A stretch of 63,725 nucleotides of DNA, the filler included, from Dugesia japonica (lineage: Eukaryota), in NCBI GenBank assembly GCA_001938525.1. It is 5 parts of 5 records of this genome, joined end to end, with 100 filler letters (N's around TTAATTAATTAA, not from the genome) between each part and the next. Parts side by side here need not be neighbours in the genome. Positions count along the whole stretch, not along the records: positions 1 to 14,987 come from MQRL01511549.1; 4 more parts are not named here. One strand, 5' to 3'. The translations under genes and the position numbers were made by a program. This document shows, piece after piece, positions 2,651 through 61,600 of this stretch. Under the pieces are notes generated by a model. That model was not told the DNA's origin, ran no database searches, and worked only from the letters and a program-made list of their open reading frames with translations. Positions within the stretch are counted from its first letter, which is position 1; each line of letters starts with the position of its first letter.

Positions 2651-3289
2651 TCTTAGGTCAGGCTTCTAAAATTAATTTTCGTTGTTAGCATGTCAAAACA
2701 TTAACATTTTCAACGTGCTAGCCAGTTAAGTTACTTCAAAAATCAGTCTTCATTAAAATATTTATTATTATTCAAAATTACAGAATTTTTAAATAATATT
2801 AAAACAAAGTATTAATCATTGTAACTACCAATCATATCAGGAATCAAGATATGGATCTGCGGTGGGAGTGCGGTCATAAGATTAAACATAAAATCAAACA
2901 TTTATTTAACAATTGCAGCATTTAGCTATGAGAAATTATTTGTCAAAATCTTTTGATAAATAAAACAATTATCCAATAATAACTAGTTTCATTGTTTATG
3001 TTTAATTAAGAAATTATACAATTGTTTTACAAAAGGTTTACATAACGTTTTTTTGAAATAAATTGTTACAATGTAAATTATATTTTCAATAGAACTCTTN
3101 NNNNNNNNNNNNNNNNNNNNNNNNNNNNNNNNNNNNNNNNNNNNNNNNNNNNNNNNNNNNNNNNNNNNNNNNNNNNNNNNNNNNNNNNNNNNNNNNNNNN
3201 NNNNNNNNNNNNNNNNNNNNNNNNNNNNNNNNNNNNNNNNNNNNNNNNNNNNNNNNNNNNNNNNNNNNNNNNNNNNNNNNNNNNNNNNA

Positions 3290-3750
3290 AAATTTTTATT
3301 AACTGCAAAAGATTTTGTCTGATTATCCGTTAACAATGGGTAATTAAAACCATCGAAACAAACTATTTACAAAGTTTAAATGACTATTAAAATAATTTAT
3401 ATCAATTTAAATGTAATTGTTGTGATATTACATAAATTGGAGAGACTTCCCATCATTTCTGCACCAAAGTTCAAGAGCATAGTAAAAATAATGAAATTAG
3501 TAATATTGTTGAGCATCGAAAAACATGTATAAAGTCAATCGGGTTTTCTGATTTTAAAGTCTTTTGCAGTGAATTTATTAATTATTGGGATAAGTGATGT
3601 GTAAAGCTTTGTTGCTAATGACATAATATTTAAAAAGATATATTCAGTTGACGGATTCAACATCGCTCTTAAAATTATGTTATTGATTATTTATTGAGAT
3701 TGCATAATTGTAATTATATAGTCATTTAAACTTTGTAAATAGTTTGTTTG
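3290..3750 (+). mobile_element. Penelope-like GIY-YIG endonuclease remnant with a partial inverted duplication
   Basis: The plus frame from ~3396 reads NLYQFKCNCCDIT*IGETSHHFCTKVQEH...VEHRKTC, a GIY-YIG/CCHH pattern. Segment 3356-3388 recurs inverted at 3718-3750. Confidence 0.65.
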
Positions 3751-4479
3751 GTCGCTTAGCAAAACTTTACATGGGAATAGAATTTAAAATTCGAGTATAA
3801 ATAAAACAATTATTATATAATACAATAACAAATAATTAAAACTTATTTCAAATATATAATAACAATATTTTTTAATTAAGTGAGAAAATGTTTTTATAAA
3901 TTGCTATAAATTAATAAAAAATGATTTTAGTATTAAAAACATAAATATACCACAAAACTTTTATTTGGAAGCTAGGAATATTTTGAGAAGCATGGTGTAG
4001 AAAAATCTTTATACGTTTATTGGACAAAACGTACAAATTTCTAATTTCTTCAGAATATTCGACAGAAAAATGAAATTATGGTTTCAAATCAGTGGAATAA
4101 GTTTTATATTAAAAAGATATTTAAATAGAAAAATTAAGACACATAGCACCTCTACGTTTTCAAAACACCAATACTATCCGTTTAGAAAAATGAAAAACAG
4201 GTTTTATTGCCAAAAACATGGTAGAGCTTGAATTAAAAGCAATCAGAAGCAAAATCCACATAGAAGGAGAATTTAAACATAATTTAATCGATCGCTGAGA
4301 AGCATTGAATATCAATTAAAGGCAGGAGGAAGATATTTTACTGCTGCATATAGTAATAACACAGCTTGATGTTTTTACCCCATCAGCAGATAATTTTAAA
4401 CATAAATGATCATTTATCCTAGCTCCATTGTCTTTGGAATAAATTAGGGAGTTAATATATTTTGAAAATTGCAAGTGTA

Positions 4480-4985
4480 GAAGATTTTCACGGTAGAAAA
4501 TTTACTCTAAAAACTAATCATAAACCCCTTACTTCCATTGCTTTACAAGAATGCCTTTTGGAATAGCTGCAGCACTTGAAACGTTTTATTAATAATTATC
4601 AAAAGTATTATGAAGATATATTAATATTTTTAGAATATCAGATTATCAGTGCAAGATTTTAAAAGAATTCAAGAATCAGGATTGAGAATTATACCGCAAA
4701 AAAGCTAGCATAAGTCAAATATTTGGGACATGCCACAAACGAGAATGACGTTTTTACTGATTCAACAAACATTGAATGGATAAAATAATTTCGCAAGACC
4801 TAAATGTATGAAGAACTTAAAAAGCTTTTTTGGGAATATTCAATTAGTATAGGTGATTTATCAATAAAAACTCAAAGAAAGCTATAAGTGTGAAAGATAT
4901 ATGTGAAAGGATAATAAAAAACTTATGTGGTCTAAAATATATAAAAGCTTTTAATGAGATGACAGAATCATTAACAAAAGCACCG
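4480..4985 (+). mobile_element. Highly degraded Ty3/Gypsy pol (RT/RNase H) fragment
   Basis: Motif remnants TNHKPL, FTRMPFGIAAALETF and FWGIFN*YR*FI in plus frames. Confidence 0.55.
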
Positions 4986-6299
4986 ATATCGAAATTCCGA
5001 GATATTATAGGTTTCAATATTGCTGCAATTTGTTTGCCTATAATACTGTATTTCCAATCCACATTTTTAACTCCGGATATAGTATTAGTAATACTTGATG
5101 CATCCTTTTTTCCGTTGATAGTTCTAATAGTTCACAATTCTCCATGATCTCTTATGATACTGCTACTAATTGTTCGTTTTGTGTCGGCTTTTGACGTGTT
5201 GCTCCTTTTGTCGTCATAGATCCTCTTGGTCGTCCATGCGCCTTTCGTTCCGTCTCTACACCGACTAATATTTTTTTATATATTTTGTGATCTGTTGTTT
5301 CTTCTTGATTATCCGTAGTTTCGATTGAATTATCTGTTGTCGTTATTTCCTCTTCAAATTCTACTGATAGACCTGTATTTTATTCTCCAAATTCGTATTC
5401 TGATGTAATTAGCGTACTTGCGTTTTGCTCGAATTCCATTAATGACGATGATTTTTGTTTTGCTCCTTCTGGTATTCTGGGTGGTGACCATATTTCGTCA
5501 TTAATATCATAGTATACTTCTCTAGGATTGAACTTATCTTTCATTGTCTTCTCCTTTTTCACTGGTTTTATTGTCATTGTTGCTGGTTCAAAATGAGTTA
5601 TTTGTATCTTTTCATCCTCTTCGCTTGATAATCCAAATAATTGTTCCATAATATCATATTTTTTGTCGTAATTTCTCTAGAGATTGTATGTCCTTTTGGC
5701 TTCGCTGATATATGGTGGTTCGTACGGTATTCTCTCCTTTATATCTCCAATTGTTTCGTATGCTAGACTGGCTATCTTAGTTTCGTATCCTTTCGGATCT
5801 ATTATTTGAAGGCGCTATTGTCGAGGTTCAATTTCACGTGTTTTTAGATCTCGCCATTTTTTAATGATTGCTCTGAACTGTATTGGCCTCCTCTCACACT
5901 CTTCCTTAAATCGTAATATTTTAAATGCCAGGTCTCTTAGTTCGTTTATTGGTAAATTACTTTTTAGAATCTGTTTTGCTTATTCTTGAACTTGGTCCCT
6001 TGAAATATTCGTTTCATTAATTCACTGTTTCTGATGCATAGTTGTTTGTTTTCTTTGTATATCTCATCATTGCTAACCTTTCTACCCATCTGTATAACTC
6101 CTGATTCAATCGGTATTGACGACTCAATGCTTGTCATGACCGTAACATTGTCACTTCTTCCGTAAAATCGAAATCTAATTCCTCAGGGTGTATTTGTAAT
6201 TCCCATGGCACTATCGGGTTCATATTCTCCACAAAATACTGCATCGTTTTCTGAAATAAACTTTCTCTTATTCGGGTATACGGATTTATGTCTCCATCT

Positions 6300-8890
6300 C
6301 CAGATGCAAATACGTATATATTCATCATTTGATCTGACCATATTCCTGACAATTTGATTGCATCACGGTCAAGATCTTCTGTGATTACCTTACCGCAATA
6401 GATTACAATATCTTCTCTTTTTACTTTTGAAATATTTTCTTTGTCTATTAACGATTCTTTATTCACATACTTTAATATCTGTTTTATCAATTTCTCCCAT
6501 GTTGTCATCATTTTTACTTCAAATTCTTTACTTGACTCGTCTGGAAAGTGAGCTGTCACTTTCACTACTTGTCTTGGCGTCTGTGCCTGCAATAAGACTA
6601 TTGCTGTTACTACTTCATTGAAATGTTCCCCACATATTAAGCCTAGTTGATTCATTCGATCTATTACCTCTATTGTTTCTCTACTTTTAATATAATTTTA
6701 ATTATTTAGTATTATTAGCCCAATTTTGCTACATTCTATTTCCACGATTTCCACGGTTCCACTTCATTTCCCACAGTTATTGTAAATTATATTTGATCAT
6801 CATATACTAATTTCAGATAATCCATTTTATCTATTTTCTCTTGATATACTTTTTTCATATTTGTGCTCATTCTACTAACTGAAATTATCAACACTTCTCA
6901 GTTGTCCGTCATCATATTCTATTGTTAATTCTGTTATCTCACCAGGTCTTAACCTGAACTCAATTAAGTGCATATCTCGATTATTCAATTTATCTCGTTC
7001 AATTATCATGTTATCAAATATAATTCTATATCTTTCCAATCCACGTTCTAGCGGTAATTCACTAAAAATATCTTTTAATTCACCGACTGTTAACGTCTTG
7101 AGTTTTTTAATTATTTTTGTTTGCATCGTTATCACTAATTTTCGTCTATAGTCGGATAATTGATTTTAACACCAACATCTGCTCCTACTGTTTCCTTTAA
7201 TACCTCGCCCTTGTACATATCGATTAACTCTGGGTGCTTACTGCGTTTTCCTCCCCTCATTAGCTGATAATAATGTTCATCCCATTATTCTCCAGTACGA
7301 CTGTTTCGGGATTCCGTCTTTACGAAATAGGGTTTCTTTGATATAATTTTCTATCGTTAACACATTCTGATAGTATTCGTGATCTGAATTATCGTCTGTT
7401 GATATTGGTGGTTCGCTAAACTCATCGATACTTATAGCAGTCATACTTGTTGGTTGTTTCAGGTTCTTTTTATTTCTACTCAATAATTTGTTTGATATTG
7501 ATCTTATCATAAATAATCTTCCTTGACTCGTACCAGGTTTGTTGTCTTCTGTTTTTGATTCTATAATTTGATCCTGTTGTTTTTGGAGTTTCAGATGTTT
7601 AATAAGCGGAACAATGTAACTCATGTAACATTCATCCAATGATTTCAAAATTTCCTCGGTTGCTCGAAAATCTAAGTGCGACCATAATTTTTCTTTATCT
7701 TTACACACTCGTTCTTTGTCAGTCACTCTGACTTTTAGTTCTCATCCTGGTTTGACTCAATAAGTATATGCATGCTCATTAACATCACCTTGATCTACAA
7801 TCATTGTTGGAGTATGTATTATATATTCCGTTATCGGTTTCGGCCACTCTAATTTCGATAAAGCTTCCAGTAGATCTCGGACTGTTAATCCTTTGATTTT
7901 CACGACTCATAGACGATGGTATTTTGTCATTTCTTGTAAGTTCGTTGAATTCCACATCTTTTCGCTTATTAGTACTGGCTTGATTGATTCTCCAACCCAG
8001 ATAAAATAATCCTTGCTTTTGATTACTTTATTACCTCAGCTTTGTATTCCTCGATTAGCGGCTTTCCTTTCTCTTTCGTTGTAATATCCATATGACCTGG
8101 ATCCGTTAACTCTACCAAATGATTCATTGTCATCCCATAACGTCGCCTGTTTAATTTATTTTTTAAATTCCGTGTTATTGCGAATATGTTTTTGATAGCT
8201 TTTGTCGAATCATTTACATCTTTGATCGGCGCTATAGGTTCCTTGATAGCTCGTTTTACCTTTTGTAAGACTTCGATTGTCTCGATTTCTTCTTTGATTG
8301 TATTATCTACATCATCTTCAGTCTCAGATATATCTTTAGTTTTCATCATATTTACTTGTGTGATTAACCGTTGATTGCTTCTTGGAGCTTTTATTTCTGT
8401 TCCCGTCATCATCAGTTTTATCTCTTTTATGCAGTTTTCTATTTTTTATTAATGATAACTGATTCTTTTGTGGGTAAAATGGTTGGTTTGAAATTGAATT
8501 GATTGGAAAAGTGCAAATTTTTGTATTTGTTGTAATTGATTCTCGTATTTCATTAGTATATCGATGTAACTTTCTTTTAAATGAATTTATAATTTCTTCC
8601 AAAGTTCAAAATTGTAAGTATTGCCACACTGGTTGTTTTCTTTTATAAACTTCCGGTAAATTCAAGACTTGTATTATCTCTTTACGTCCAGGCCTGATTC
8701 CATAGTTAGTTATAGGAGCATCGACATCGTCCTGTTCAATTACTCTCGTCTTTGAACATATTACATAGTTGTCTAATGGCTCTTCTAATACTTGTTCGTT
8801 TTTAATAGCACAAAATAGTCCTCCCATCGTATTGTTTTGCAAGGTGACCTGACATGGTGCTATTTTTTTGTCTGATTCTTTGAAATGTTT
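6300..8890 (-). pseudogene. Array of ~5 divergent ubiquitin-like (beta-grasp) domains in the element A polyprotein
   Basis: Repeated TxxxL...YxI...I(E/D)...Yx(I/V/L)(R/K)PG units at ~8660-8890, 7725-7900 and 6900-7170. Also TIENYIKETLFRKDGIP at ~7300-7365, and VKVTAHFP...FEV...IVIYCGKVITED...LSGI at 6310-6570. Confidence 0.6.
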
Positions 8891-9439
8891 AGTTTTTTGT
8901 ATATCGTAACTATAAAATCGTCTGGCTTTGTTTGCTCTCTCATTTCGTTTTCGTATTCCCAGATCATTGGCTGCATTCCTCCCTGATAGTTGGGTTTAGA
9001 TGGCTACATTCCATTAGTTCCATAACGTGATTCATTTATTTCCTATAAGTCTTTCTGTTGATCATGCATTTGAATACTTGTATTAATTTGAGTTTATATT
9101 CTACCAGTCGTTTTACCGATGTTTGTTCACTCTTTGCGATCTTTACTTCCGTTTCATTGACTGTTCGCATCATATTCACTCGACCTCATCTCATCTGCGC
9201 AACCCGCTTGTTCCTGTTTGAGTTTATCATATACTCGTCGTTAAGTTGCTTCATGTTTGTGCATTTCTTGTTGCATCATGTTAACTCGCTGTTGACTCTG
9301 CTTCTGGTTATTCTGTAATTGTGGTCGTAAGCTATTATTTTGTTGTATCCTATTTTCGATTGCTTGATTATTTGATTTGTTATTGAAGACTTGGCTATTA
9401 TTTCCATATCCACTTCCTCTCGTATTTCTGAAGCAATTT

Positions 9440-10500
9440 CTGTTACAAGTATAAAATACAATGGGTTTTGATGTATAATATTGATCTGCTGTTTTTCCTG
9501 TTCTCTGGCATAATTTACAAGTTGATGGCACTAAATGACATTCTCTGGCTATATGTCCATATTGCCCACAGTTAAAGAAGTTTTGATTACTCGCTGGTTG
9601 CCAATTATTTGGTCTATTGCCACCTTCTCCTCTTGAGTTATTTAGTTGTCTTCTGTTGTCGGAACGATTCGGTCACGGAGTCAATGATTTTAGCAAAGGT
9701 TGCGTATTTGCTGGTATTGAATTCGTTATCTTCGGGACCTTCTTTTCTCCTGAGTCTTGCTCCTCAATTTTAAAGATACTAGCTAGTTTCTGCGTAGCTT
9801 CTACTTTTTGTGATACTCTGGCTACGTTTATAGCTTGTTCCACCGTTTCTGGTTGCATTAAATTAACCCGCTTTCGCACTTCTGAGTTTCTTAGACCTTT
9901 AATAAATATTCCAAGAATTACTTTATCTTGCACCTCGTCTCCGAGGGCTAGTTTTCCGAGTTTCTACAATTCTATTACAAAAGCTGGAAAAGATTCATCA
10001 TTCATCTGTCGTCTAGCTGAAAAATCTTGGACTTCCTGTCCTTGTAATGTCAATAGTTTGAAGTTGTCTTCTAAGATCTTTTTAGCATCCTTCCATGTTT
10101 TTACACCATCGTTGACTAGTTTTGCTTTATTTCAGTATATCGTTTTTGCTGATCCTTTTAAATATAATGGTAATTGCTAGACTGCTCTCTGCTCACTCTA
10201 TCTGCACGCTTTTCTATGAATTTCGTATGCGGCTATGAAATTATCTAATTTCTCCGGGTTGCCCGAATAATGTTCTTCATTGAACTCTGTTTTCCATACT
10301 GATTCAAGTTTAACTTTAGTTCCACTTAGGCTGTCGTCCTCCGGTTTCTCAATAGGGCTAATCATTGTGTCTTGGTTATCCGTTTCATTTCCTGACATAA
10401 TTGATTCGTCACTAGATTCTAGACTGTTACTTTTACACGTGTTCAATTGACTTGATGGTCGATAGATTTTTTCCACACTGGTATGTTCAGATCTCACTGT
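9440..10500 (-). pseudogene. Gag capsid core and zinc knuckles of giant element A (disrupted by stops)
   Basis: ORF-track pieces 10198-10497, 9673-9933 and 9241-9531 join through in-frame stops. The knuckle at 9538-9583 reads FFNCGQYGHIAREC. Confidence 0.8.
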
Positions 10501-11499
10501 CAGGGCTTGTCCTTCCTGAATTCGATTGGCTCAACAATATTATACTGTAATTGCATTTTGGATCGCCGATTGGATTTGAATCTGATTCGCTAGTTTTGTA
10601 TGTTTCTGTTAAGTTATCTGTAGATCTTGTTGGAGTTGATGGAGTTCCTGGTTCTGTTAAGAATTATTGATTGTATGGTTTCTTGCTTTGTGGATTGAAC
10701 GATGCTGTTTTACTTTTCTTTTCCAAATGAATATGATTTCTTGTCTTTTGTCTAATTTCGTAGATTGTATCTGTCTGCTGAACTCGCAGTGATGAATTAG
10801 TTTTCGATCGTTTGATTTATTGAATAATATGAAAGTAAAATATGATAGCCTCCTGGCTTCTAAATTCTAGATCACTTCTTTTTTCATGTATCATTAGTTC
10901 TTATTAGTAGTTTGTTTAATATTAATACACATGCGCTTTATTATTATTTATTATTCATATACTTTTTATTATTTATTATTATATTACGCAATTTATTAAT
11001 TTTTTAATTCCTATACTTTGTTAGTTCACACAGTTCACATTTTTGCACACCTTTAATTAGTCATATATATCATATTGCACACATTATCATTGTAGGTTCA
11101 TTTTACGCCCAACTTATCTACCAATTTATTTCGTTTAATTCATTAAGTTTTACCCGCGATTTGACTTTCATCTATACTCGATTTTATTTCTCTTTAATTG
11201 TCATACCGTATTTTATTTTCATTTCTACTTTGGCCATACTTATCCCATCGTCAATTCACATTAATACACATTAATATCTTTATTCCAAAATTTCTACAAT
11301 CTTTCCTGATTGCTGCTCTGCATTTTCTAATTCTTGTTTCTCTTCTCACGATGTATATTATTTAAATTTTATTCCTCAATTTTTCCAATATCCTATATCA
11401 TGAGTTCATACTTAACTATAATTATTTTATAAATTTCGTCATTATTACGGTAAAATCTCCTTTAACATTATTCCTTAAGTCTTTTTGCAATCGGTAGGC

Positions 11500-12740
11500 C
11501 ATTTCAATTCAGCTCCGATTATTATTTCCATACTTCAATATATTTAAGTGACCAATAGTCTATTCTTTCAGCTTCGGTTATCTTTAAATCACGAGGTTCC
11601 TATTTCAGGAGTAGCTGGTAGTCTATTTCGATTCGGCTTCAGGCTCTCCAACTAATGTGTCAATTCTCTCTAAACTGCATTTTTTAGAGTAGCTGTGAGT
11701 CTATTTTCTTTTGGTTCAGCTCCAATCTACTCTTTAATGTGAAGCATCTCAGTAAAATGTGAAATTTCACTGATTTGTATTTTCCGTGCTGCTCGGACGT
11801 GAGATTATAGAGAAAACTCTTCGGGGTTTCCAACTCTTGCTAAACTGATTCCAATTTTGGTAACCAATGTACCTTCTAGTCAACACTGAAATACAATAAT
11901 CACAAGTTTCTCCGAATCTATTTTGGCTGATTCTACCATGACTCATTTCACCTTATCAAATAAAATTCTGTAGGGCTATGAGCAGATAGCTGTAGAGAAT
12001 GGATTTCAAGGCGAATCCACGCCAACCGAACTGCCGTAGATGGTCAACCTATCATTTACGGATGCCTAACTTTGCCGACACCCTCATTGATTTCTTGTGA
12101 ATCGTGACTTATCTTCTCTAGATAAATCTTGTATTGTGATTCTTTCGTCCTGAGAACTATCCACAGTAGTTAGTTCCCGAGAGCAGTACTCTTTATCCAC
12201 AGCCATGAAGCTCGAAGACAGTCTCAAGCATATCTCCAGAAGATATTCTTTCACTACAATTACTTCGAAGATTTCTTACCATTAGTCAATAATAACGTCC
12301 TCTTTCTTGGTCATTAGACAATCATTAGGGCTATCCTCTTGGAAGTTGATCAAGCTTCGGATTCTAGCTTACTGATTGCCAGCCCTATTTTCCAAAATTG
12401 ATCCTATTATCACGACACCTTTTCCTAGGGTACTTTCACATATCTATGATTACTTCGAGTCTTCTTTCCAACTCAAGGTTTTCTTTCAAAACAATTTCTA
12501 ATATCTCGATACTCTGGCAAATCCCGAGCTCATAATTTGTAACTCTAAAACCTTCGATTAATACAAAATAATAAGTATTCTCGTGAGTGGTTCCTGCTGG
12601 ACACCACAGTAATAAAACTTCCTGCAATACTATCGTCCCCTTCTCCATTCCTTTTTCGATTAAGATTTCGATATTACCTCGCATGGGTCTACCTGTGTTG
12701 ACTGTCCCGATACCCATCCCGCACTTCTTGATAAGTATAG
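11500..12740 (-). ncRNA. Conserved structured 5' leader of giant element A (paralogous to 16560-17710)
   Basis: Colinear non-coding similarity with element B, with no shared open frame and compensatory stem changes (TGGATT-tcaaggcg-AATCCA vs GTGAGTG-tcaaggcg-CACTCAC). Confidence 0.6.
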
Positions 12741-14987
12741 CTTTTAGTTAATCATGTTGCAGATTACTCCTTGAATCTACAATAATTCAGTCGTTAATAC
12801 GTTTGGTTACTTTTGATTGATTCATCTACTCGTCATAATTCCAATTATTATCTCCTTCATCGTTTAAATTTCTCAATTAATTCTAGTATTTATGTTTGCG
12901 ACCCTTACCCAACTTAGTCAATTTATTTCATTAATTTTTTATAATTTCCATATCATTTAACCATTCATATCGTTTTAATTTTTCTCCACATTATTCCTTT
13001 AATTTCTTCGCAATAATTATTCGTTTATCTCTAAAACTCCTTAAAAAATATCTCTCTTTATTCTTATTAATTCATTTTAACACTTTCCGCATCATTTTAA
13101 TAATATTTATCTAATAATCTCGATTCAATATATTTAATTCATGTCATACTTATCTTCAATTGAGTAAAAATTAGATTTGCATATTTTAAGGTTTTTATGT
13201 TGAATTAACTTTCCATGGGAGTAATTAAAATTTTAACTAACAGTGTTATTTACCGAATAGAATATGGAAATATTTTAATTTTAATTAACTATACTAAACT
13301 ATAATAGTTTAAACTATATTTTATTTTAAAACATTAACTGTTTCTAAAATATCAGAATATTTTATACTTTTAAAATTAGAATTTAATAATTTAATTTATT
13401 TTATTATTATAAAAGCAAATTTGTTTTGCTAGTCCATTTTAATCTAACCCCTCGCAGCTATTATTAAACTGTGTGGCAAAACATTCATTTTACTGATTTC
13501 AAATTAGAATCGTGGCAAACATGTAAGTCTATTTTTACTATTTATAAAAATTAATTAATTGTTTTTTTGTGTTCATTTAGGAACCTAGCACAAACTTAAA
13601 CCAACGGAGGCTTTGAATTATTGAACATCGATCTACAGTGTATGCATTAACTTTAGTTACACAAAGTTGATACAAGGCCATCAAACCATTCAGAATGTAT
13701 ACGGAATCATAATCCTGATGTCACTTGCATAAAATACAAATCCGATGTTTTATATGCTCTATGGTTTGATAGGAAATACTTGGAAGATAATATGAATCGA
13801 TTGTAAGTGAGAAATAGTGTATTGTTTTGATTTAATTTCAGGATTACTGATTTACACTTAGCAAAATTAATCCAGTTGTTTCTGAATCGGAATCTGTTAT
13901 TCCCAGCTATATTTCTGTTGAAGATGGAAATGGAGAAGATATTGATTATGAATTATGTATTTTATTAAATACTTATTGAATAATTAGTAACGTTACTATT
14001 GAGAACTAAATTAATTTCCTGCTATTAATTATTTATGCAAAGTTTAATTAGATTTGTGATGTTTTGAAAATAAGCTGATGAATTAATTTTGAAATATTTT
14101 TAATATGACTCAAATTGTTTATTTTACATTTCAGATTATTTTCATAAATCTTTTTTAAAAGCTATTTTTATTATTAAGAAAGTTTAAATATTCCACCATA
14201 AGCAATAAAAACAGAAAAAAAATTTTACATAAAAATATATTTCCAAATTGAATTAGATAATTCAGTACGTATTGAAAGATTAGAAAAATGGCATCAAATA
14301 AAGACCACACAATTGGAAATAATAAAGGTAATTCTGGAATAATTCACGATTATTTTTATCCTTTTAAAATACAACGCGAGGTAATTTTTAACTTTAATGA
14401 TAATCTTTATTGACTTGCTAGAAGTTTCTATTTATATGTAATCATGTAAATACAACATGCTTGGTGTCTAAATTTGTTGTTTGATATTTTCAAGATATAC
14501 TTATTAATGAATATTTCGTCATATTCATGTTATTAAATAACTTTAAATAAATTTACAAAAGGTTTAGTTCTAAAATAATTAGTACTTATCTTAGCGGTTA
14601 ATTTTTAAATAAGTTAAACTTTGTCAAATAATAATTTGGAAATATTTATTATGAAAAGTTATTTATAATTTTTATTTTAATGATAATCTTTATTTATTTG
14701 CTGATGTTTAATAGGGCAAATTTAATGTAAAATACTTCGATGAGAAGATCTTTGATGATAAACTACTTATGTCATTTAGATTGCAACTGTTGTTTTTATT
14801 CTATTTGCTTTGTTTGGTGCTTATTTGAATAAATAACATAATAAATAAATAAAAATAGATAAATCATTTCTAAATATCACTTACTCCACAGTGTGCACTC
14901 ATCAAACCTCGGGTAATTGTCATGTCAGTTAAATAATACCCCCGAACTATTTGTGTTAGCTCAGCTCATTATATTAATAATCGAAAC

Positions 14988-15087
14988 NNNNNNNNNNNNN
15001 NNNNNNNNNNNNNNNNNNNNNNNNNNNNNNNTTAATTAATTAANNNNNNNNNNNNNNNNNNNNNNNNNNNNNNNNNNNNNNNNNNNN
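14988..15087. other. Artificial scaffold-joining linker (44 N + TTAATTAATTAA + 44 N)
   Basis: Exact 100-bp pattern with a six-frame stop core, repeated four times in the window. Confidence 0.97.
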
Positions 15088-16559
15088 TTTTAATTGATTT
15101 TTGTAATGTGTTACTTATGATTTTAATTTGGATTTAAAGTCAAATAATATGAATAATGTATACATTTTAATTTAAATTATTAGTTAATTAATTTTAAACT
15201 TGTAATAAATCTTGTTTAAATTCATAGTTTGCAATATATGTAAACTTTTCAAATTTCAAATTTAATTTTACAAATAAAAAATATAGACTACGTTTTAAAA
15301 TATGTGTAAATTTTCTTTTAGTTACTTAAAATTTTAATAAATTTATATAAAAATTGAATAATTATACTAAGTTCCTTAAGCTTTCTTCGATTTCATTGGA
15401 TTTTCACCAACCATCCAACTTGACCAATAACAAGAATTATGCTCCAGATTTTAAGAATTATATGAAAAATGTNNNNNNNNNNNNNNNNNNNNNNNNNNNN
15501 NNNNNNNNNNNNNNNNNNNNNNNNNNNNNNNNNNNNNNNAAAAATGTATACTTATGGAATGACCACTTATTTTACACTTTGTTCTTTCGGATTTTACCAG
15601 TCTAATATAAAGTTTGGCGCTTTAAAATGATGATATCCAGAATCAGTAAACATTTCTCTATCTTATAGATCCTTTGATGTTCAAATTTCACTGACTTTTT
15701 ATTTTTTCAAAATTTGATGGTTTATCATTAGAGACTATAATTATACATGAGGGCAACCCATAATTAATACTTGTTTTTAATTTATTTCATTAATAATACA
15801 GTTTGATGATTTTTATCCGTATTAATATTGATATTTGAAATATTTTCAATTACTGCATTCTCCTCGTGGTCTTTTTCTTTATAAGTGGTTGACATGGTAT
15901 CAGTATCACTTGATTCCGAACTTTATTCCGAGTATTTTCGATTTCTACTTGACGCTCTTGTCGTAGATATACTATCATTAACTGATTTAGATTTGTATAA
16001 ACTTTCTAGATCAAGGTCTTCTAACAAATTGGCTATTGAGTGGTTTGGTTCGGTTATGGTGTCGAATTCTCTTTGTATTTCGTCGTTAGACGGAAACGAA
16101 CTGGGTGATTCGGATGCTGAAATTGATAAAAATTGATTGAAGTGTCGAGACGGCCTGTTTTATTATTATTTAGGCTGAATTGGATCATTTATTTACAAAA
16201 GACCTTCTATGTTCGGTACTTTCTCTAAAATTGTATTGGGGTTCCTGATTATCTATGATTGTTAATTTGATTGGCTCGTATATTGATTGGTGTATCTCGA
16301 ATTTTGGAACATTGAAATATATTTTGTTTTGGTTTCTGAAAATAAATAAGATGGCCCTACGGCTTCTGCACACATTCAAATATTATTATCGCATTCATTA
16401 ATTAACCACTTTTACAAAGTATCCAGAACAACTTGCTGGTAATCAACTCACAACTGCAATATTTACTACAATGTCTTACGTTCATATTTCGATATTTTTT
16501 TTCAAAATAACTTATAATCGTTTCTTCCAACAGTTTATTTGCTTTGAACCCTCTCTTTA

Positions 16560-17710
16560 TGTAGCCTGTAATCTTTTATTTCAGCTTTAGTTGGGCGACA
16601 ATTTCGATACTCAATTTTCAATAATACTTCAATATCTCAATGCTTGAGTCAGTTGACAGTCTATTTTGATTCAGCTCCAACCGCTCGCTAGTATGAAGGT
16701 TCTCAGTCAGAATCCTATGATCCAGCTGATGTGTAACTACGACGCTACCCGCAATCGCAATACAAAAATAATTTTCCAAAAATAAACAACACTACTGATG
16801 CCACACTTGGGCTAACTATAGTACCACCTTGTCAAAACTGAGTTCTCTGATCGCAAGATACCATGGACAATATGCGGCCTTGTCCTACCGGGATTTACCA
16901 CCCTAAAATCTAAAGCTCTGTAGAGCTACGGGTAGTTAGCTGTATGGAGTGAGTGTCAAGGCGCACTCACGCCAACCGAACGCCATATGTGGTCAGCTTA
17001 ATCAATGCCATGCTCATTGCCGGCTCCTTCGTTTATTCTCCGGGAATTCTTGAGTTTATCTCGCTTGGACTAAACTTCATTCTTCTGGCGTTGAAGTCAG
17101 ACAAAGTATCCAACTTCTGAGATCAGTACTCCTTATTCGAAGCGTTGAAGCTCGAAGTCCGACCCAGCATATCCACGGAAGATCTTCCAGTCCAATAACT
17201 ACTTGGAAGATTCCATTCTTTAGGTCAATAACAATTTCAATCATTTCAGTTATTAGACGATCATTGCGGCTGTTCCTTCAAAGTTGATCAGGCTTCTAGT
17301 TTCAGCTTACTAATTTCAGACCCTATTTTCCCAAATTACATCTACCATTATGACATCTTTTTCTCAGTTGCTTTCAGATATCCATCGTTACGCTCGAAAT
17401 TGTCTCTCTTCAAATCACCATAATTAAAATTCTTCAACAACATTTAAATCTAAATTCCAAATAATTATCTCATATGAAACCCTCAATTAAATCACCAAAT
17501 AATACCAATAAACTCTCGAAAATTTAATTTCCAGTAATAGTAACTACTCGATTATTGTTTCATATGACTCCGTAACCATAGAACCCCACTGTTACACCTC
17601 ATCCTCATCTCCGTTCATTTGTCGATCGAATTCTTGGTTACCACTCACTTGGGTGACCTCCCTGTGTTGACTGTCCCGTTACCTATCCTGCACTTCTTGA
17701 TAAGGTATAA
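16560..17710 (-). ncRNA. Conserved structured 5' leader of giant element B
   Basis: Blocks shared with 11500-12740 in the same order: TCAAGGCG...CACGCCAACCGAAC, CAGTACTC, GAAGCTCGAAG, AAGTTGATCA.GCTTC, CCCTATTTTCC, CCTGTGTTGACTGTCCCG and GCACTTCTTGATAAG. Confidence 0.6.
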
Positions 17711-20352
17711 CAATTTATTCTCCAAATAAATTTCATTGATTAACTACATTAAAATACTCCAAATCATTTGTCGCCCCCTCTTCTCCGTAAATTATATTAG
17801 TTAATCGACAATCAAAATCATTCTCTCATCATTTTTAATCTCATAACTTTCAGTTTCCATTACTCCATTATCGGTGCCATATCATTACTACTCAAATTAT
17901 TCATTATTCATCAATAACAGTTTGCATCTCGTCAATTCAATTATTATTCAATTCCAATAAATTATATCGTCACAACATTAATTACTATTGTCAATTATTA
18001 TTCATCCTGAATTTAGGCTTCATTTATTAGCTCATCTCGTTTACTTTAATATTAATATTCATTCTGATTCATTCCCACATCCCGACAGGATACGTCTCGA
18101 TCCATTAATTTACTCCCCATACTCATTGTTTCACCTTCTCAATGGAGGTTCTAATCTCAATAATTATTACTCTTCTTTATTATTCTTTGATTTATAGTCA
18201 TTATCGCTTCTACTTTATGCTGAGCTGCTTCATTTACATTAAATCATATCTTTACTCATTTAGAATTTATAACTCGCCTCGTTAACTTTTATTTATTCAT
18301 TCATTGCTGCATATCAATTTCAACTACGCTTCTTTTACTATATTGTTACTGGTCATTGGTTTACCCACCCCAAAAACTCGCTTCTCGTTCCGATTTTCTG
18401 CTGCTAAATGTATGTTAAAATTTATTCAATACTTGCCTCATTACTAATACACTTCTAATGCTGCTCCTTTTTTTATGCTTAAATGTCAAATGTCTATTGA
18501 CTCACATCCAGTTTCTACTACTGTTGTTTTCATAGACAACTGACCTGTGCGTCAATCTGATTTTCTCCGCTTTTATCTAAAATCCCTGCCGATTACTCAA
18601 CAAATATTCCATGACCAGCTGCAGCAATTTGGTTCTGATGTTTCACACAAACTGCCCGGCCTGATCATTGTTTACTTGTTGATTCATTTAATACGTGATG
18701 CTCGAAGTGAGGCCTTCCGAATGAGAAGAGTTGCGAGATACATCTTCTAATCTCACAACTATGCTCATTTGAAACCACTCTATTATAATTTCATCATTAT
18801 TTGTTTATTTATTATACTTTATTTAGTTTAATATTTATACCCTCGTTAGATGCTCCTTACCACATAATCCGGAGATGCAGTGCATGTGAGTCCCATTTCT
18901 CTCTCACACACTTCACTTCCAAATCTTTTGGTACATTCATTTTCCTACACATTTGTTTATGAATTACTCATAAGATGTTTAATATAAGTCTATCTCGATA
19001 CTTGGTGTGTGCAAGTTCTCATGACCCACTCTCACCCGCCAAGCATTTGAAACACCGTCTGATTTTTATCATTATCTCATTTCATAATTAAGTTAACTGC
19101 TGTTTGATATAAATTATGCTCGCTGTCACATGAAAGATAAGCAGCTTGTAAATCTCACTCTATTTTTGGACGCTCATCATTATCTGTGCAGCATCCTTAC
19201 AGGACACACACAATAACTCGATGCCTGTGTCGAATCGTAATACAAAAATTTTGCCGCAACTATTTAACTCACTTTATAGCCTCGTTTAAACTCAACTTTT
19301 AATCTTTCACTTCACCTCTCATTACTCGAATTTATCGCTACTCTTTACACAAAATCTTAACCATGCTTTGCCTGTATCTTATTATGTTCCTATTCTCTGT
19401 GTGCATTATAATTGTCTTATATCATTGTTCTTTTAAATGCGTGCTATGTTCTTTACTCTCTGCCTATCTGTATCAACTAATAATACGTGCTAACTAACTC
19501 AATACTTATGTTGTACTTATATTCTACTGTAATAATTATTATTTATTGGTTGATTTTAAATTATCTATAATTATTCAAATAAAATAAGATAATAAAATAT
19601 TATATCCAATTATCCAAAATTCTACCTTGTTTTAAATATGTAATTTACATCGAATTTAAATTATCTAAATAATATTACTAATATATATTAATAAAAATAT
19701 AAAGTATCCGAGTATTACCAGTGCTAAAATCATTATGCCAATATAAATAAAATCAGTACCAAGCTCATCAACAAAAGTTCATTTTTAATTTAGCTGCTTA
19801 TCAAACTGTACTCAATCTTTATTGAAATACTTTTATAAAAAATCGTTTACTAAAAATTATTTACGAAATTTATTTACTGAAATTTATAAATGAACATTAT
19901 AATAATAAATAAATTATTAATTATACTGCGCATGTTAAAAAAGTACATTAATAAAATATTAATGCGCAAAGTAAAGAATATTAATCAAATTATCAATCTT
20001 ACATGATTCGAGTGCCATTTTCATCGACAAAATAACTGCATAATTTTTAAAACTTATCTGCATATTTGGAACATAATTTTATTATTCAATGCTATTCAAT
20101 TACAAATATATTCGATTTTACAAATATGCATATCCCAATTAGATTTTTCCGCGGCCATTTTCCGAATGTAATTCGCACTTTGCATTTTCATTCATTTACA
20201 ACATTAGTTCTACTCGTTTCGTTAAAATTATCATAATTGTGCTATCTTTGTAGTGGCATTACTGAAAATTACGTTTAACTGGATAACAAGATTTAATAAT
20301 TAGTTTTCTGAAAATTAATAGTGTATGAAAGAGATTTAGATCGATTGCGTAG

Positions 20353-23220: not shown

Positions 23221-23320
23221 NNNNNNNNNNNNNNNNNNNNNNNNNNNNNNNNNNNNNNNNNNNNTTAATTAATTAANNNNNNNNNNNNNNNNNNNNNNNN
23301 NNNNNNNNNNNNNNNNNNNN
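23221..23320. other. Artificial scaffold-joining linker
   Basis: N run + TTAATTAATTAA + N run, 100 bp. Confidence 0.95.
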
Positions 23321-36478: not shown

Positions 36479-39400
36479 TTGGGGATTGCTGGGATGTCAA
36501 CGCCGAAGCTTGATGGACGAATTGAGGATGGAAACGGATTGGTACAGTTGGGCTCGATGCTAAAACCGGTGATCGCCTGGCTTACAGACACACTGGACGG
36601 CGCCGCCCAAGTACCGAAAACAAGTAAATATTTTTCGCGCACTTTGCGCAAACTTAGTAAAAATTTTAGTAATTTTCTCTTTAACTCTTCAAGTAATATT
36701 TTGAGTAACAATTTTTGTAATATTTCCTTAAACAACTTTAATAATATTTATTCGAATAAGAGTTTGTTATTCTCAATTTTTCTTGAAAACGTTTACAATT
36801 TTGCCATTGAATGCTGCCTCGCGGAACCAATTACCCTTAAGAAATGCGCAATGATTCTTTTTGGGGATATTAACTTTATTATCAATTTTTGTGATGATGA
36901 TGTTAAACTTGTGGATAAGCAGCAGGGAATAAGGGGGCAAAATTCATCTCTTTTTTCGGAAAAAGGCGATAAAGAACAGAATTTGGCAGAAAATAAGAGT
37001 GAACAAGAAAAACGAACACACATTGCATATACTTGCCACAATCATCGCAAATATAGGGAACACACAAAAAAATGTAAATCTCCAAAGAAATGTACCTTTT
37101 CTAAGACGGTTAATGAAAAATACACACAATCTAAGGAGGTTTTCAAGACAAATAGGGAAATTTTAGTTCAGGATAGTAAGACCTTGGAAAGTAGAACAAA
37201 TAAAAAGGATGAAACACAGAATGAAAAACGAGATATTGTAGTTAAGGTTAAAGTGGAACATGCAGGTAACAACAACACAACATACAAGGACGCACTTAAT
37301 AAAACATCGAAAACGAATCGAAGACGAATCCCGATTTAAAAAGGTCAACTTCCAAAAAATAACAAACATCCATCTAAACAACATTAAAGATCAGGATGCT
37401 CCTTTAGCAAATGTTCTTCTTCATAACCATAGGGAATTCACCGTTTATTTAGACAGTCCACATAGTAACCCACAGAATAAAAGAATAATGATCATTGATA
37501 AGTACTTGAAATGCTTAAACGTTCTCTCTGCAAATATCAATGATTACGAAAAAATCACGGATAACTTTAGCTCGCGTATTAAATTTTCTGCGGCTAAAAT
37601 AGGAGAGTCTAGTGACATTATAACAAAAATAAGCTGACTAGCTGAGAAACCAGGCACCATGCCAAAGCATAACAAAACAGGCAATACTCATAGCTTTAAG
37701 ACCAAACCAATTTCAAAAAATAAATTGTAAAACATTGCATCTGAAATAAGCTTTAGAATATCTAGGGTCTGCAATAAACTCGCAAAAATAGCCACCATTA
37801 AATTAAACACTTTGCATACCTCACTGCTCTGTGTTTGAAAAAAGGAATCGAAAGACATAAAAATATGTTTGGATTTCAGACAATTGAATGTAGTAACGAA
37901 AAGACAAGCCTTTCCTATGCCTAATGTCGATGAAATGCTGGACAAGTTAGATGGAGCCAAATATTTTAGTTCAATAGATTTGGAAAATATATACAGAGCA
38001 GGTAGAGCTCGAAGAAGAATCTCAAGAAAAAATAGCGTTTTCAACCAAGCACGGACAATATTGTTTTAATAGAATGTCATTTGGCATCGAGGCGGAACAG
38101 GTGGCATTTCAGGAGATGATGACAAAAGTTGTAGGCATAATCAATGGAGCCATGTTTTATCTTGATGACATTTTGATATGAAAAACAATAAAGATCAACA
38201 CTATGAATTCATTGAAAAATTATTGACGGAAAAAATGAAGGCTGGTCTAAGAATTAATCCGGAAAAGGGTCAGTTTCTTCAAAGCGAAATCAAGTTTCTT
38301 GGACACATAATTAGCAGGGATGGTGATCCATCTAAAATAAAAGCAATAAGAACATTTGGCAAATCTAACTGTGTGAAGAAGTTACGAAGTTTCTTGGGAA
38401 TTTGTAATTGTAAGTAAATATTTTAGACAGTTAAATTTTTTGATAGTTCGACCGAAGTTGTTAACGAAAATAGTTTGATAAATAATTAATTAACTTCATG
38501 TAATAAAGTTAGAAAATTTAATTGAAAATATTTTTTGATTATAAAATTTTGTAAATTGAATTATTTTCAAAAATTTAATGAAGAATATTTTTGCTAAACA
38601 TTAAATTTTGTAAGATGAATTATTTTCTAAAATTTAAGTAAGAATATTTTTAAATAATTTCCGTCAGAATTAAATAAAAATGTTAGCTTGTTTAAAAAAT
38701 TTGTAAAAAAACAAATTGAGAGTGAGTTTTTTTGTTGTCATTAAATAAATCTTAGAATGAAAAGTGTTCAATTTTTAAATGAAAAGATGAATGGTACAGA
38801 TTCATCTAACAGTAATTATTACAGAAAGTTTATAGAAAACTACTCAAGAAAATCAAATATATTAGTGCAGTTGTGTAGCGGACCAAGCCACAAGAAATTA
38901 GAATGAACAGATGGAATAAACGATACTTTTGAAGGTCTAAAAAAATCTCTAATGACTGCACCAATATTGTGTTTTCCGGACATAAACAAAGAATTTATAT
39001 TAGATACATGTGCCAGTTTTGATATAATTGGAGCAGTATTGTCACAGAGAGATAAAGAAGTAAGAGAAAGAGCTGTTGCCTATGGATCACACTCAATGAC
39101 GAGTCATGAAAAGGGATACTGCATTACACGAAAAGAGTTATTGGCTGNNNNNNNNNNNNNNNNNNNNNNNNNNNNNNNNNNNNNNNNNNNNNNNNNNNNN
39201 TTATAAAGCTCTAACTTTCATGATGACGACAAAGAAACCAATTACGTCACAATTCCAGACATGGATTAATTATCGGAGCAGTTTAGATATGGTTTTGGAA
39301 TATAGAAAACGAATTCAACATGATAATGCAGATATATTATCTAGACCAAGATGTGAGGTATGTGTACAGTGTCAAATTTCATATGAAGATGCCAAGAAAT

Positions 39401-39930
39401 GGAAGATTAAAACGAGAATACGGAGTCAATTGAAAAGGAAAAAGAAGATCACTTAAACATTTCCAAGGAAACAGATTTGATCAAGAAAATGGAAATTACG
39501 GATAACAAACTACGTGAAAAACTAGAAGAAATACATAAATTATTCTGTCATGCAGGAGTTGAAAAGGTGTACCAATATATGAGAAACAAATATATTGCAA
39601 AGAATTTGTGGAGCCAAATACAGAAGTTAGTTCGTAGTTGTGGAAATTTTCAGAAGACCAAAGTAGTGACAATAGCAACTAAAGAGAAGACAAACAGTTT
39701 AGAAGCTACCAATTTATTTGAAGTGATATTCACAGACATATGTGGGCCAATGCGGGAAACAAGTGGACGGAAAATACATTCTTGGAATAATTGACCAGTA
39801 CAGTAAATATCTGGTTTCTGTACAATTGCCTAGACAAGATTGTGAAATAATTCAAAAGCTATTTTTGAAAAGTGGGTATTAAGATTTGGATGTCCGAAAG
39901 AGATAAGACTAGATTGTGGAAATCTTTTGA
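36479..39930 (+). mobile_element. Decayed Ty3/Gypsy element(s): gag with CHCC motif, RT, RNase H and integrase N-terminus
   Basis: Gag PKLDGRIED..WL and TCHNHRKYREHTKKCKSPKKCTF. RT CLDFRQLN..AFPMPNVDEMLDKL..YFSSIDL, MSFG and FYLDDIL. RNase H FILDTCAS..IGAVLSQ..YCITRKELLA..NADILSR. Integrase HKLFCHAG..VRSCGNFQ..FTDICGP. Confidence 0.9.
38409..38811. mobile_element. Solo LTR (403 bp, TG...CA) inserted in Gypsy pol, 5-bp TSD GTAAT
   Basis: GTAAT at 38404-38408 and 38812-38816. Removing the insert restores FLGICNYYRKFIENYS. Confidence 0.85.
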
Positions 39931-40689: not shown

Positions 40690-41310
40690 GGTATAAATAG
40701 CAACCGTGAACAAACGCGAAACGGATGATGGTTAGCGTTATCAACAACAATTAATAAAATTGAGGCAAGCATTGCATGAAAAACGGCCAATTTTCCAATA
40801 GACATGAGACGGTGTTGTTACAGCATGATAATGCTCGACCCTACACTTTGATTTTAGCAAGGAATACGATACCAGAATTCGTATGGAAAGTTTTAAATAA
40901 TAATTTCACACCTCGGGTATAAATTTATATGTTTACATTAAGGTGTGAAAGTTCACACCAAAGGTGTCAATTTCGCAGTTTACATTAGGGCGTGGAAGTT
41001 CACACCTGAGATAATGTAAACACCATACTCACCAGACATCGCACCAAGTGATTACCACTTTTTTCGCTTAATTCAACATGGCCTTTGTGAACAGCACTTC
41101 AACAATCATTATGATGTCCAGAAATGGCTTGACTATTGGGCAAATTCCAACGAAGAAAATTTTTTTTATCGTGGAATTTATTTGTTACCAGAAAGGTGGG
41201 AAATGTTAGCAATGGTGGACGCTACTTTGAATGAGATGTTATGTAAAAATAAATGTATTTGGAGTTTTTATTTTTAAAAAACAGCGAGAATTAATGCAGC
41301 TACCTAATAT
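40690..41310 (+). mobile_element. Mariner transposase 3' part plus right TIR, interrupted by a small palindromic insertion (~40897-41020)
   Basis: LQHDNARP and PYSPDIAPSDYHFF motifs. The end aaaaacagcgagaattaatgcagctacctaaTA is TIR-like. Confidence 0.85.
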
Positions 41311-42302
41311 ATGCCTTAATTTAGTCTAATTAAATATTCATTTTAAAATAATATCATTTTCAAAGCAAAGAATAAATGGTAGTGAAACATCGAGTTTATG
41401 ACAAAAAGTCGACGGAACGATTATTTTCATTTACGTAAATTTTTTTGTTAGACTACTATCTTAAAAATAATAAATATTTCAACCGGGTTTTGTACTTGGG
41501 GACTTTTTGTCCGGTTACTAAATAATCACTTCAGCCATTCATTTTTAAAAAATTTGCTAAGTTATAAAGTATCATAAGTACATATTTAATAAAATTCTGA
41601 ATAATCCAATTATTTTACACGATTTAGAATTAACATAAATTCACTTTCCATTCTTACACGATTTAACTCCTATTGAGAAATTAGAAAAATTAAATTTCAA
41701 GAATAAATTAATTCGCGTTGAATCATGTGATAAACGGCAGTGTAATGAGAATTGAATGTAATTTTTAAAAGCTTTCTTACGATTCTCAAGATCACGTGTA
41801 CAGCATGCGGCCCGTGACCCAAGTCCATGAAAAATACGTATTTTTTACAGAAAAAATTAATTCGAAGTTATATAGTACTTCTAATATTAGTAATGTACCA
41901 CCTTCTGGGCGAAATTTTTGTATGCATAGCTCGTGACATTGATGATGTGCCCCATCTAGAATAAAGGTTGTATACAACTACTATAGATACTTTCCTCAAA
42001 ATACGTGACAAGTTTCACTAATTATTAGAAACTTAAAACGTTAAACTCAATAACAAAATCCAAGTTTACATTTTTCCTGTATTTCAATATAGTTGTCTCA
42101 ATAATCTGAACAGTTCAATTTTCGAATAGTACTTTACTCAAAGTCGAAATAATTCATTCAACTCCACAAAACTTTTATTTACATTATTCATTAAAACTTA
42201 AGTAAATTTTACAAAAACCAGTAAGACTTTCGTAAAATAAATTTCCGGCAGAAGAAAGCATTTAAACGAAAAATAAACTTTATACTTTTTAAACGAAAGT
42301 AT

Positions 42303-43410
42303 TTATTTTAAATTATGGTTTTCAGCCTGAATGCTTAAATGATTTAATTTAGACGCATTTGAACCAGGGAGAACAGATGCGATTTGAACATCAGTTTTCT
42401 TGGATCTATCAGAACCTGCATGATGATCAGATCTAGATCTTTTTGCCGGCGTAGATGAACTTGTGGACGGCGGTGTATTATTCAAATTTCCCTGATTTGA
42501 AGATTCTGAGTAGGACTTAGCCGTTTTTGGATCAGAATATAGATCAAGAATTTGATGACAAATATCTTCCATAACCTAACTAATATTATTTGAAATAATA
42601 TTTGGAAAATTTTACTTCAATAGTCATTCCTTCAACAAAACTTTCCCACCACTTTTGGCCAACCTGTTGATTGTCCCAACTTTCTATTTCTTGTTTATTT
42701 AATTTTGTAGCTAAATATAAAACAGCACAAGCTACAATCTCTGGCTCCCATTTTAAACATAAATTAGTTCTCAAACTATCATTAATAAATGTCCATGACA
42801 TCTGAACAAGTCTCTCGACATTTGTTTGTTTACCTTGATCTATATAATTACGTTTAAATATAACATAATACCTTTAATTTTTTGAACATAGTTCAACAGG
42901 TATTTGTAAGGATGAGAGACTTGTAAATCGAATTTTATGGTTTTCAGTAAAATTCTTTCCATCGTCATAATTTCTTCCTAATAATATTTGAAATTTTATT
43001 AGTGTAATAAAAGCAATGCCTTAGGATCACTTCCAAATTCGTTAAAATGTTTTTTATCTAAAATAGATTTTGTCATTGTTACTATGTCTCGACATTTCTT
43101 AGGAGTTTCTTCAACTTTACCGGCCAAAAACAAGCAACATGAGGCTGTCAACTAAAACTGAAAGTCGTTTATTATAATTTAATATGCTTACAAATCTTGG
43201 CATAGTTTTAAAAGAATGAAACATATAGAATCTGTGAAAATATACCATAGCTGTAGCACATGTATCATATTTTAGGCCCAGCTTATTACCAAGTTCACTA
43301 ATGAAAGTTGCTCCTTCATTACGATACTTATCTTCAATTCGAGGATCAATTCCGTCCGTTAAAGATGGTGTATTCCTCAATTCTTCTTTTTCAAAGTACC
43401 AACATGGCAT
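42303..43410 (-). CDS. CCNK: Cyclin K, 5 exons (43410-43192, 43151-43020, 42977-42872, 42839-42616, 42575-42303), 317 aa
   Basis: The spliced product reads [16 protein letters not shown]...[15 protein letters not shown]|[22 protein letters not shown]...DPK|[24 protein letters not shown]...[22 protein letters not shown]...|[13 protein letters not shown]. These are diagnostic cyclin K motifs, and the frame is preserved across all junctions. Confidence 0.95.
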
Positions 43411-44181
43411 AGACTTTTAAAAATCATTATTAATATTTTATACTAATAAAATCAAAACTACATGTTCATCCATTATTCAAAACCAAAGCCAATATATTAA
43501 ATTAAACAAATAAATAATTTTAAACAATTTAATTTTAGTTTGAAAATTTCAGTACGATAAAAATTTCAGTGCTAAAACAATATTTATACAAAATGAAAAC
43601 TTTGACTTTTAAAGTTATAATAATGACTAAAGATATTTTTTTTGACAAAACTAAATTAAAATAAATTTTTTAATCAAATCAAAATGGTAATAAAACCTAC
43701 ACATAAAATCTAATTTATTAAATTAATTTGATGAAATATTTTGGTAAAATAAGAACAGCCATTAAGTAGTATTGCTCGATTTTAAATGTAAAGCATCTTT
43801 TGGTTTTTTCATTTAAATTTATTAAATATTTATTTTGTCATATTTTCTCTTAAAATGTTGAAACTACAAATAATACAATTAGAACTGTGCTTTATCGATA
43901 AATTAAATATATGATATATATGTTTGAAATAGTTTAAAGAAGTTTTATATTTTACAAGCAAAGTTGAATCGGGTTAATTGCATAGNCTCAGGTCCATTTC
44001 AAGAATGTGAAGTTAGCCTGAATGGCAATTAAAATATATTTAAGTTTAATTAAAATATACTTCAATAAGCAACGTGTGAATAATAATGTAAACTTTTTAT
44101 TAAATCTAAACTTTACATAAATTTTTAAAAACATGCTAACTGATTTTAAAAAATCAACAAGTGAAATTAAACAGTAAGATT

Positions 44182-47100: not shown

Positions 47101-47300
47101 ATCAATTGCTGGCTGTTAACGTTCGTTCAGCAAATTAATTTTGACTTATCTACGATTAACGATGTAACAAGATCGCCTAAGTAACCTAGCATTTTTAAAT
47201 GGAAAAAGAAAAAGTTGACATAATCCACTTTGATGAAGTTAATTTGCTTCATAAAAGGCAAGAAAAATGTAAACATAATAATTAATTATGATAATGTAAT
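44182..47300 (+). mobile_element. hAT transposon (ZMYM1/Tip100-like transposase), decayed
   Basis: Left TIR CAGTGGCGTAGCG at 44182. Transposase motifs LRGHIE, QQIQNEF, YYGLLFDLTAEITHRKQMSQVLRFV and ELFLGFIE, and dimerization motif ALQILLTTLVSIAGC*RSFSKL. Confidence 0.85.
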
Positions 47301-55260: not shown

Positions 55261-55360
55261 NNNNNNNNNNNNNNNNNNNNNNNNNNNNNNNNNNNNNNNN
55301 NNNNTTAATTAATTAANNNNNNNNNNNNNNNNNNNNNNNNNNNNNNNNNNNNNNNNNNNN
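55261..55360. other. Artificial scaffold-joining linker
   Basis: 44 N + TTAATTAATTAA + 44 N. Confidence 0.97.
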
Positions 55361-60815: not shown

Positions 60816-61600
60816 ATGGAAACTGCAGAAAGTATAGTAGCGGCTAACGCAAGTACGACAAAGGACCTATTCGTACAAGCTTTGAGGCCAAAAACATATC
60901 GAAAAGGAGATCTTGTTAAGAAGTTTATAGTCGAATGCCGAAAGTATTTCGATGCAGCAAATATAACCAAGAGTACCAGAGAACTGGTAATTGTGGACCT
61001 ACTTGATGATAAATTGAGTAGATTCGAAAAAACCGATGATGGGTATGGTTACGAAGATAGACTATGAAGTTTATTCGTCAAGGAAAAGTTATTTGTAAAG
61101 GATATTGAAAGCGTATTGTCATACAGACGACAAGAAGAGGATTTTGCCAGCTTTGTGGAAGAAATAGACAAGATGGTTGAGTTACTGATGGCACACAACG
61201 ATAAGGAAGAAATGAGTTACAGAGGAGCCCTGATGAAGAATAACGAACAATACCATACGTTCAAACGACGAGAGGATTACCAGACAAACAGAAATCCAAA
61301 GCCGATGGAAAACAAACAAAAAGAGATATTATGTTACTGTTGCAATAAGCCGGGGCATATAAGAAAAGACTGCCCATCGACACCCATAAGAAAATGTTTA
61401 GGATGCGGATTGACCGAACACATAAGGCGTTTTTGCACGAAGATTAATTGCCAAAATTGTACACTTAAAGGACATTGAGCAAATGAATGTAGAACGTCTG
61501 ATGGAAGGATTCGGCAGATAAGAAGGCAGACCGAATATGATAGACAAAAATGGGGTCAAATTAAAATAGGATATTCGACGCAAATCGAGGTGTTGGTGGA
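60816..61600 (+). mobile_element. Ty3/Gypsy gag remnant with three CCHC knuckles
   Basis: CYCCNKPGHIRKDC, CLGCGLTEHIRRFC and CQNCTLKGH*ANEC. Homologous to 1463-1708. Confidence 0.85.

Follow-up and report, generated by a model that had tools for sequence, protein, structure and literature searches.

Duplicated modules and a probable ubiquitin-like domain behind Gag in a decayed, likely Burro-like retrotransposon copy of Dugesia japonica

How does the first open reading frame (ORF1) of a giant retrotransposon grow, and what might the added segments do? The question is raised by a 63,725-nucleotide stretch of AT-rich planarian DNA (Dugesia japonica, assembly GCA_001938525.1; five parts of five records joined end to end, hereafter the window), whose minus strand encodes a Gag followed by a long accessory region. 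A preliminary description had read this region as a tandem array of five ubiquitin-like units in a long terminal repeat (LTR) retrotransposon. We propose instead, and give an even chance to the proposal as a whole, that the locus is a decayed, 3'-truncated, Gag-led copy of a many-copy element, likely of the giant Burro type; that its ORF1 grew behind Gag by duplication of a module of about 290 amino acids (aa), with a possibly ubiquitin-like core, and by one unrelated, likely ubiquitin-like domain; and that these domains act as binding surfaces, not as cleavable ubiquitin. To our knowledge, no LTR retrotransposons larger than those of the Burro type are known.

Repeated modules behind Gag

The Gag with a zinc knuckle noted previously upstream of the units was recovered: Retrotrans_gag (E 2.5e-4; 21.7 bits against a cut-off of 24.1) and zf-CCHC (9538–9576, E 1.1e-3) both match below the Pfam cut-off, and two further, degenerate knuckles are recognised by eye only. 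A search with this Gag found 7 homologous Gag proteins among 2,894 candidates (identity 26–30%, E down to 1e-55), the nearest of which have three knuckles each. One homologue, P0010, runs on into an integrase zinc finger (PF17921, E 2e-20) and another, P0012, is joined to a RING finger (E 6e-9). A third, P0009, has Cys/His-rich stretches in its C-terminal half, with no Pfam match there, and may be a chimeric gene model; one segment of this half resembles, by eye, what we take to be a peptidase motif. The Gag matches and the contig depth described below support the earlier assignment to a Gypsy-type element, here a many-copy one with a very long, Gag-led ORF1. Elsewhere in the window, a further zinc-knuckle Gag-like fragment lies at 61068–61490 (+) (zf-CCHC E 1e-4).

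Are the units behind Gag related to one another? The three segments first singled out were reproduced by translation in a single minus-strand frame (U1, 8666–8830; U2, 7724–7885; U3, 6920–7090), as were the two additional peptides, U4 and U5 (Table 1). Pairwise BLOSUM62 local scores among U1–U3 are 67, 50 and 67, with z-scores of 10.8, 6.3 and 10.7 (5,000 shuffles each) and a mutual identity of about 25–30%; the U1/U3 pair is borderline when taken alone, since the region-wide null has its 99th percentile at 50–52. Judged by sequence, U1, U2 and U3 are paralogous units. The mutual similarity claimed for these three thus holds; it does not extend to U4 and U5, listed earlier as further units, which gave no significant score against them in any of six pairs (z -1.4 to -0.1).

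The true repeat unit is larger than the segments first quoted: a module of 280–300 aa, present in about 2.7 copies. Modules 1 and 2 align over about 240 residues (score 131, z 15.7, 0 of 3,000 shuffles), and module 2 matches the partial module 3 (score 82, z 8.4, again 0 of 3,000); the comparison of modules 1 and 3 is weak (z 2.4). The helical tails behind U1 and U2 are similar by themselves (z 7.3). Because 7200–7400, which holds U4, matches the stretch before module 2 (8020–8230; z 4.2, 8 of 3,000 shuffles), U4 is part of the linker. With U4 a linker counterpart, U5 unrelated and the cores spaced about 220, 180 and 110 aa apart, not head to tail, a five-unit tandem array of ubiquitin-like units is not supported. 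DNA-level similarity between the repeats is gone (scores 20–25), so the duplication is old, and its loss while protein similarity was kept suggests long selection.

Table 1. Features of the element copy on the window
Feature	Position	Strand	Remarks
Probable 5' LTR region	11574..13040	-	inferred from raised contig depth; boundaries approximate
Gag capsid domain	9889..10167	-	Pfam Retrotrans_gag; ORF1 read from about 10398
Zinc-knuckle region	9430..9590	-	one recognisable CCHC knuckle and two degenerate
Repeat module 1, about 300 aa	8080..8990	-	head, alpha/beta core U1 (about 8655-8925), helical tail (8470-8654), linker
Repeat module 2, about 280 aa	7250..8079	-	core U2 (about 7715-7999), helical tail (7560-7714), linker including U4
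Unit U4	7280..7357	-	approximate; counterpart of the stretch before module 2; no separate core
Repeat module 3, partial	6800..7249	-	core U3 (about 6905-7176); frame break near core start
Unit U5, about 93 aa	6295..6574	-	stop-free; unrelated to U1-U3; likely beta-grasp (ubiquitin-like)
Remaining ORF1 in this copy, about 415 aa	5044..6294	-	low stop density in path frames; no family assigned
Cut-off junction	5000..5006	.	oppositely oriented fragment adjoining; contig ends and a spanning contig

The ubiquitin-like fold and competing explanations

Which of these units are ubiquitin-like? U5 probably adopts the beta-grasp fold, as had been proposed for all units; U4 is not a core of its own. Three lines of comparison concordantly assign U5 to the ubiquitin clan, and its top structural and Atlas rows are mostly integral beta-grasp domains (plexin RBD, FERM F0/F1, RA, PI3K ABD/RBD, PB1, and the UBL of Get5 and PLIC2). 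In cellular proteins, such integral domains act as binding surfaces. A glycine-lysine pair that follows a hydrophobic strand of U5 is invariant in alignment A2 and matches G47-K48 of ubiquitin by eye.

For the triad U1–U3, a beta-grasp core is an evenly balanced proposition. All sequence tests against ubiquitin were at or near shuffle level, so that the by-eye line-up of these units with ubiquitin is without statistical support, and the model of U3 resembles little-finger-type folds, not beta-grasp. Together with the lack of relationship between U5 and U1–U3, and with the single such motif per Burro ORF1 in the published description (PMC6431247), these results favour an explanation to which we give a substantial but lesser chance: that U5 alone is ubiquitin-like, being the Ubi2/SUMO-like motif known from Burro ORF1, and that the triad repeats some other small alpha/beta domain, in which case the finding is essentially known. 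Several points weigh against it. The U3 model lacks the strand beyond the frame break and has a mean predicted local distance difference test score (pLDDT) of 49; U3 tiles reach ranks 4–7 of 525 (z 1.8) in a glocal ubiquitin scan; and the profile was made from ubiquitin only (mean identity 88%), so it is blind to distant ubiquitin-like families and cannot exclude them. Moreover, the predicted order of elements in U3 (strand-helix-strand-strand-short helix-strand) is what we take to be a beta-grasp minus strand 1. U4, chosen by eye for its likeness, matches the ubiquitin profile locally (2 of 2,000 shuffles) and falls below other tiles in the blind scan.

Could the region be a true poly-ubiquitin-like array, cut by host deubiquitinases for polyprotein processing or acting as a decoy that mimics ubiquitin chains? 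Several candidate units in one polyprotein and the glycine-lysine pair of U5 are in keeping with this idea, but no unit of this decayed copy is followed by di-glycine, the four GG pairs of the coding path lying elsewhere (9624, 8982, 8824 and 7254), and the units diverge widely from one another and are not significantly like ubiquitin. Since di-glycine is absent and the cores lie 110–220 aa apart, deubiquitinase cleavage or conjugation is unlikely; signals for ubiquitin-type processing are not supported, and we consider such an array very unlikely. Capture of a piece of a host multi-domain gene, carried as a passive passenger, would agree with the many host-like domains reported in Burro elements (PMC6431247); it is highly improbable, however, given that a search of 1.84 billion representatives with the 967-aa read-through gave no relative at E <= 0.001, that the composition skew of the module region equals that over Gag, that its depth equals that of Gag in all four runs compared, and that the repeats have kept protein likeness after losing DNA likeness, which suggests long selection.

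What might duplicated modules do for the element? Under the explanation that we prefer, ORF1 would have been extended behind Gag by tandem duplication of the module. The modules would be made together with Gag and then either be kept on the particle or be freed by the element's own protease, offering several docking surfaces to host or element proteins. Burro is reported to carry MATH, RING/BIR and BCL2-like cargo, and in keeping with this the likeliest partners may be regulators of the ubiquitin system or of cell death; in the accessible text of PMC13465017, Burro1 is reported, second-hand, to protect planarian stem cells via a captured RING/BIR region. More tentatively, the Gag of a recently amplified giant Gypsy family may be followed by four fused, integral ubiquitin-fold domains, three arisen by duplication of the module and one of separate origin. 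Together they would give the Gag particle a multivalent platform for engaging the ubiquitin or cell-death machinery of the host, and the single Ubi2/SUMO-like motif of Burro would here have its counterpart in an expanded module.

State of the copy and its surroundings

Contrary to what had been stated, ORF1 is not open for more than 4 kb. The best coding path (10398 to 5044, 1,782 codons) comprises nine frame pieces, whose ends are estimates and are poorly resolved at 9150–8870, with 8 frame switches and 27 stops, whereas the other frames have 328 stops in 3,553 codons; the longest stop-free piece past the knuckles is 187 aa.

Are these breaks a property of the family or of this copy? Contigs from four of six listed runs were compared with 3500–14500, and in each of the four, 3,221–8,395 contigs were placed on the region, with about 4600–13040 deep throughout. 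Over the module and Gag stretches, contigs of depth 1,060–1,768 differ from the window at 7–11% of letters (16 in 228, 22 in 304, 33 in 306 and 45 in about 445), whereas window-identical contigs have a depth of about 4; contig depth does not equal copy number, and the contrast indicates a homogeneous many-copy family and an older, decayed copy here. Among the 40 best-supported of 1,154 differing places, 25 are inside the path, with nearly all contigs unlike this copy; 4 of the 25 coincide with stop codons (a hand estimate predicts about 0.4), and near 2 of the 8 frame switches, no more than a few bases away, length differences were noted. Thus, the breaks look specific to this copy, and we infer that Gag and the modules form one continuous polyprotein frame in unbroken members of the family.

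The absence of protease and reverse transcriptase (RT) downstream, also noted before, was borne out by Pfam in the pieces scanned and reflects truncation of the copy at about 5003. There, other copies continue into different sequence (loose ends in 7 contigs of run X4), and a contig of depth 3.8 agrees with the window at every position of 4700–5032 (0 differences); the junction is therefore genomic. Pfam gave no match for 5044–6021 or 6035–6730, and none to MATH, BIR, ankyrin or BCL2 in the pieces retained within about 1,400 aa past the knuckles; most of these domains would lie past the cut. Abutting the cut end in opposite orientation, 4100–5003 (+) is a decayed fragment, itself present in many copies, in which RT-like motifs are recognised by eye (the sole Pfam match being RT_RNaseH at E 0.098); it may belong to a different element or be an inverted stretch of this family.

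On the 5' side, summed contig depth over the probable LTR exceeds that of the internal part and collapses past about 13040–13400; no second LTR copy was found on the 3' side within the window, and no primer-binding site was identified at the probable 5' LTR. A second element, related to this one, is represented at 15800–19000 (-) by its 5' part, which has a similar S/T-rich leader and ends before any Gag match; 11961–12739 and 16911–17709 share 68–77% DNA identity.

Further features lie elsewhere in the window. Long A/T-rich ORF pieces at 30691–34141 (+) and 34144–34925 (-) resemble, by eye, a protein-primed DNA polymerase with Maverick/Polinton neighbours, the polymerase-like piece having no Pfam support at E <= 1. 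A decayed Gypsy RNase H-integrase fragment lies at 39100–39900 (+) (Integrase_H2C2, E 3.4e-8), and by-eye mariner and hAT-type transposase fragments lie at 40921–41280 (+) and 45391–47191 (+). A host gene resembling cyclin K, its introns very short, occupies 42300–43420 (-); its exon 43192–43416 matches one protein at 97% and others at 70% at most (best named matches: molluscs about 62–68%, parasitic flatworms 60–63%). By these matches the host is likely a spiralian; a planarian agrees with them and with the AT-rich sequence. A degenerate array of about 41–52-bp units spans 26860–28120. The identical 100-base gaps at 14988–15087, 23221–23320, 35168–35267 and 55261–55360, each a 12-base palindrome between N runs, are scaffolding marks, not biology.

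Relation to Burro and to other ubiquitin-like systems

Contrary to the preliminary description, which knew of none in an LTR retrotransposon, a ubiquitin-like motif has already been published for elements of this kind: a Ubi2/SUMO-like (PF11976) motif lies between MATH and BCL-2 in Burro ORF1, about half of this giant ORF1 being unannotated (PMC6431247). Among the matches listed, that paper alone mentions a Ubi2 or SUMO-like motif; the accessible parts of PMC8532177, PMC11410931 and PMC13238120 hold nothing further on domains, and those of PMC6338049 and PMC13524379 do not mention ubiquitin. Only its repetition would be new: no report of more than one ubiquitin-like domain in a single retrotransposon turned up in the literature searched, and Grohme 2018, Lee 2026, their supplements or the Repbase entry may annotate more. 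The locus illustrates one route by which a giant ORF1 grows, internal duplication of a module, and offers small, expressible domains with a testable fold and partners. If the triad is ubiquitin-like, the result is a multivalent ubiquitin-fold platform that we did not find in print; should U5 alone be so, the locus is no more than an ordinary decayed copy bearing a known motif.

The element is likely Burro-like, a likeness drawn from the published description, and its modules would work as a Burro accessory region does. It resembles the planarian giant Ty3/Gypsy elements Burro and GYPSM1 (PMC6431247) in (i) a Gag at the N-terminus, with one recognisable knuckle and two degenerate candidates here against two or three knuckles in those elements; (ii) a very long accessory region, in those elements between Gag and protease, which holds a ubiquitin/SUMO-like motif there and probably a ubiquitin-like domain here; and (iii) a high copy number, with decayed copies carrying stops and frameshifts. 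It differs in that one Ubi2/SUMO-like motif is named in Burro, whereas here a module recurs beside a separate unit. Burro ORF1 measures about 4,900–5,100 aa with its accessory domains before the protease, and here at least 1,782 codons without protease precede the cut; the Burro set of MATH, BIR, ankyrin, BCL2-like, env-like and dUTPase-like domains is unmatched in the pieces retained.

Polyubiquitin precursors likewise carry several ubiquitin-like units per reading frame, but as head-to-tail 76-aa units with di-glycine, whereas the units here have long spacers and no significant sequence similarity to ubiquitin. A functional analogy is offered by Ubl1 of coronavirus nsp3, which, in the accessible text of PMC9938351 and PMC8769549, is a ubiquitin-like domain within a viral polyprotein that binds the nucleocapsid protein; it belongs to an unrelated RNA virus, with no homology shown and no tandemly repeated module. 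The integral beta-grasp domains of plexin, FERM and similar proteins are alike in lying inside a long protein without a terminal di-glycine.
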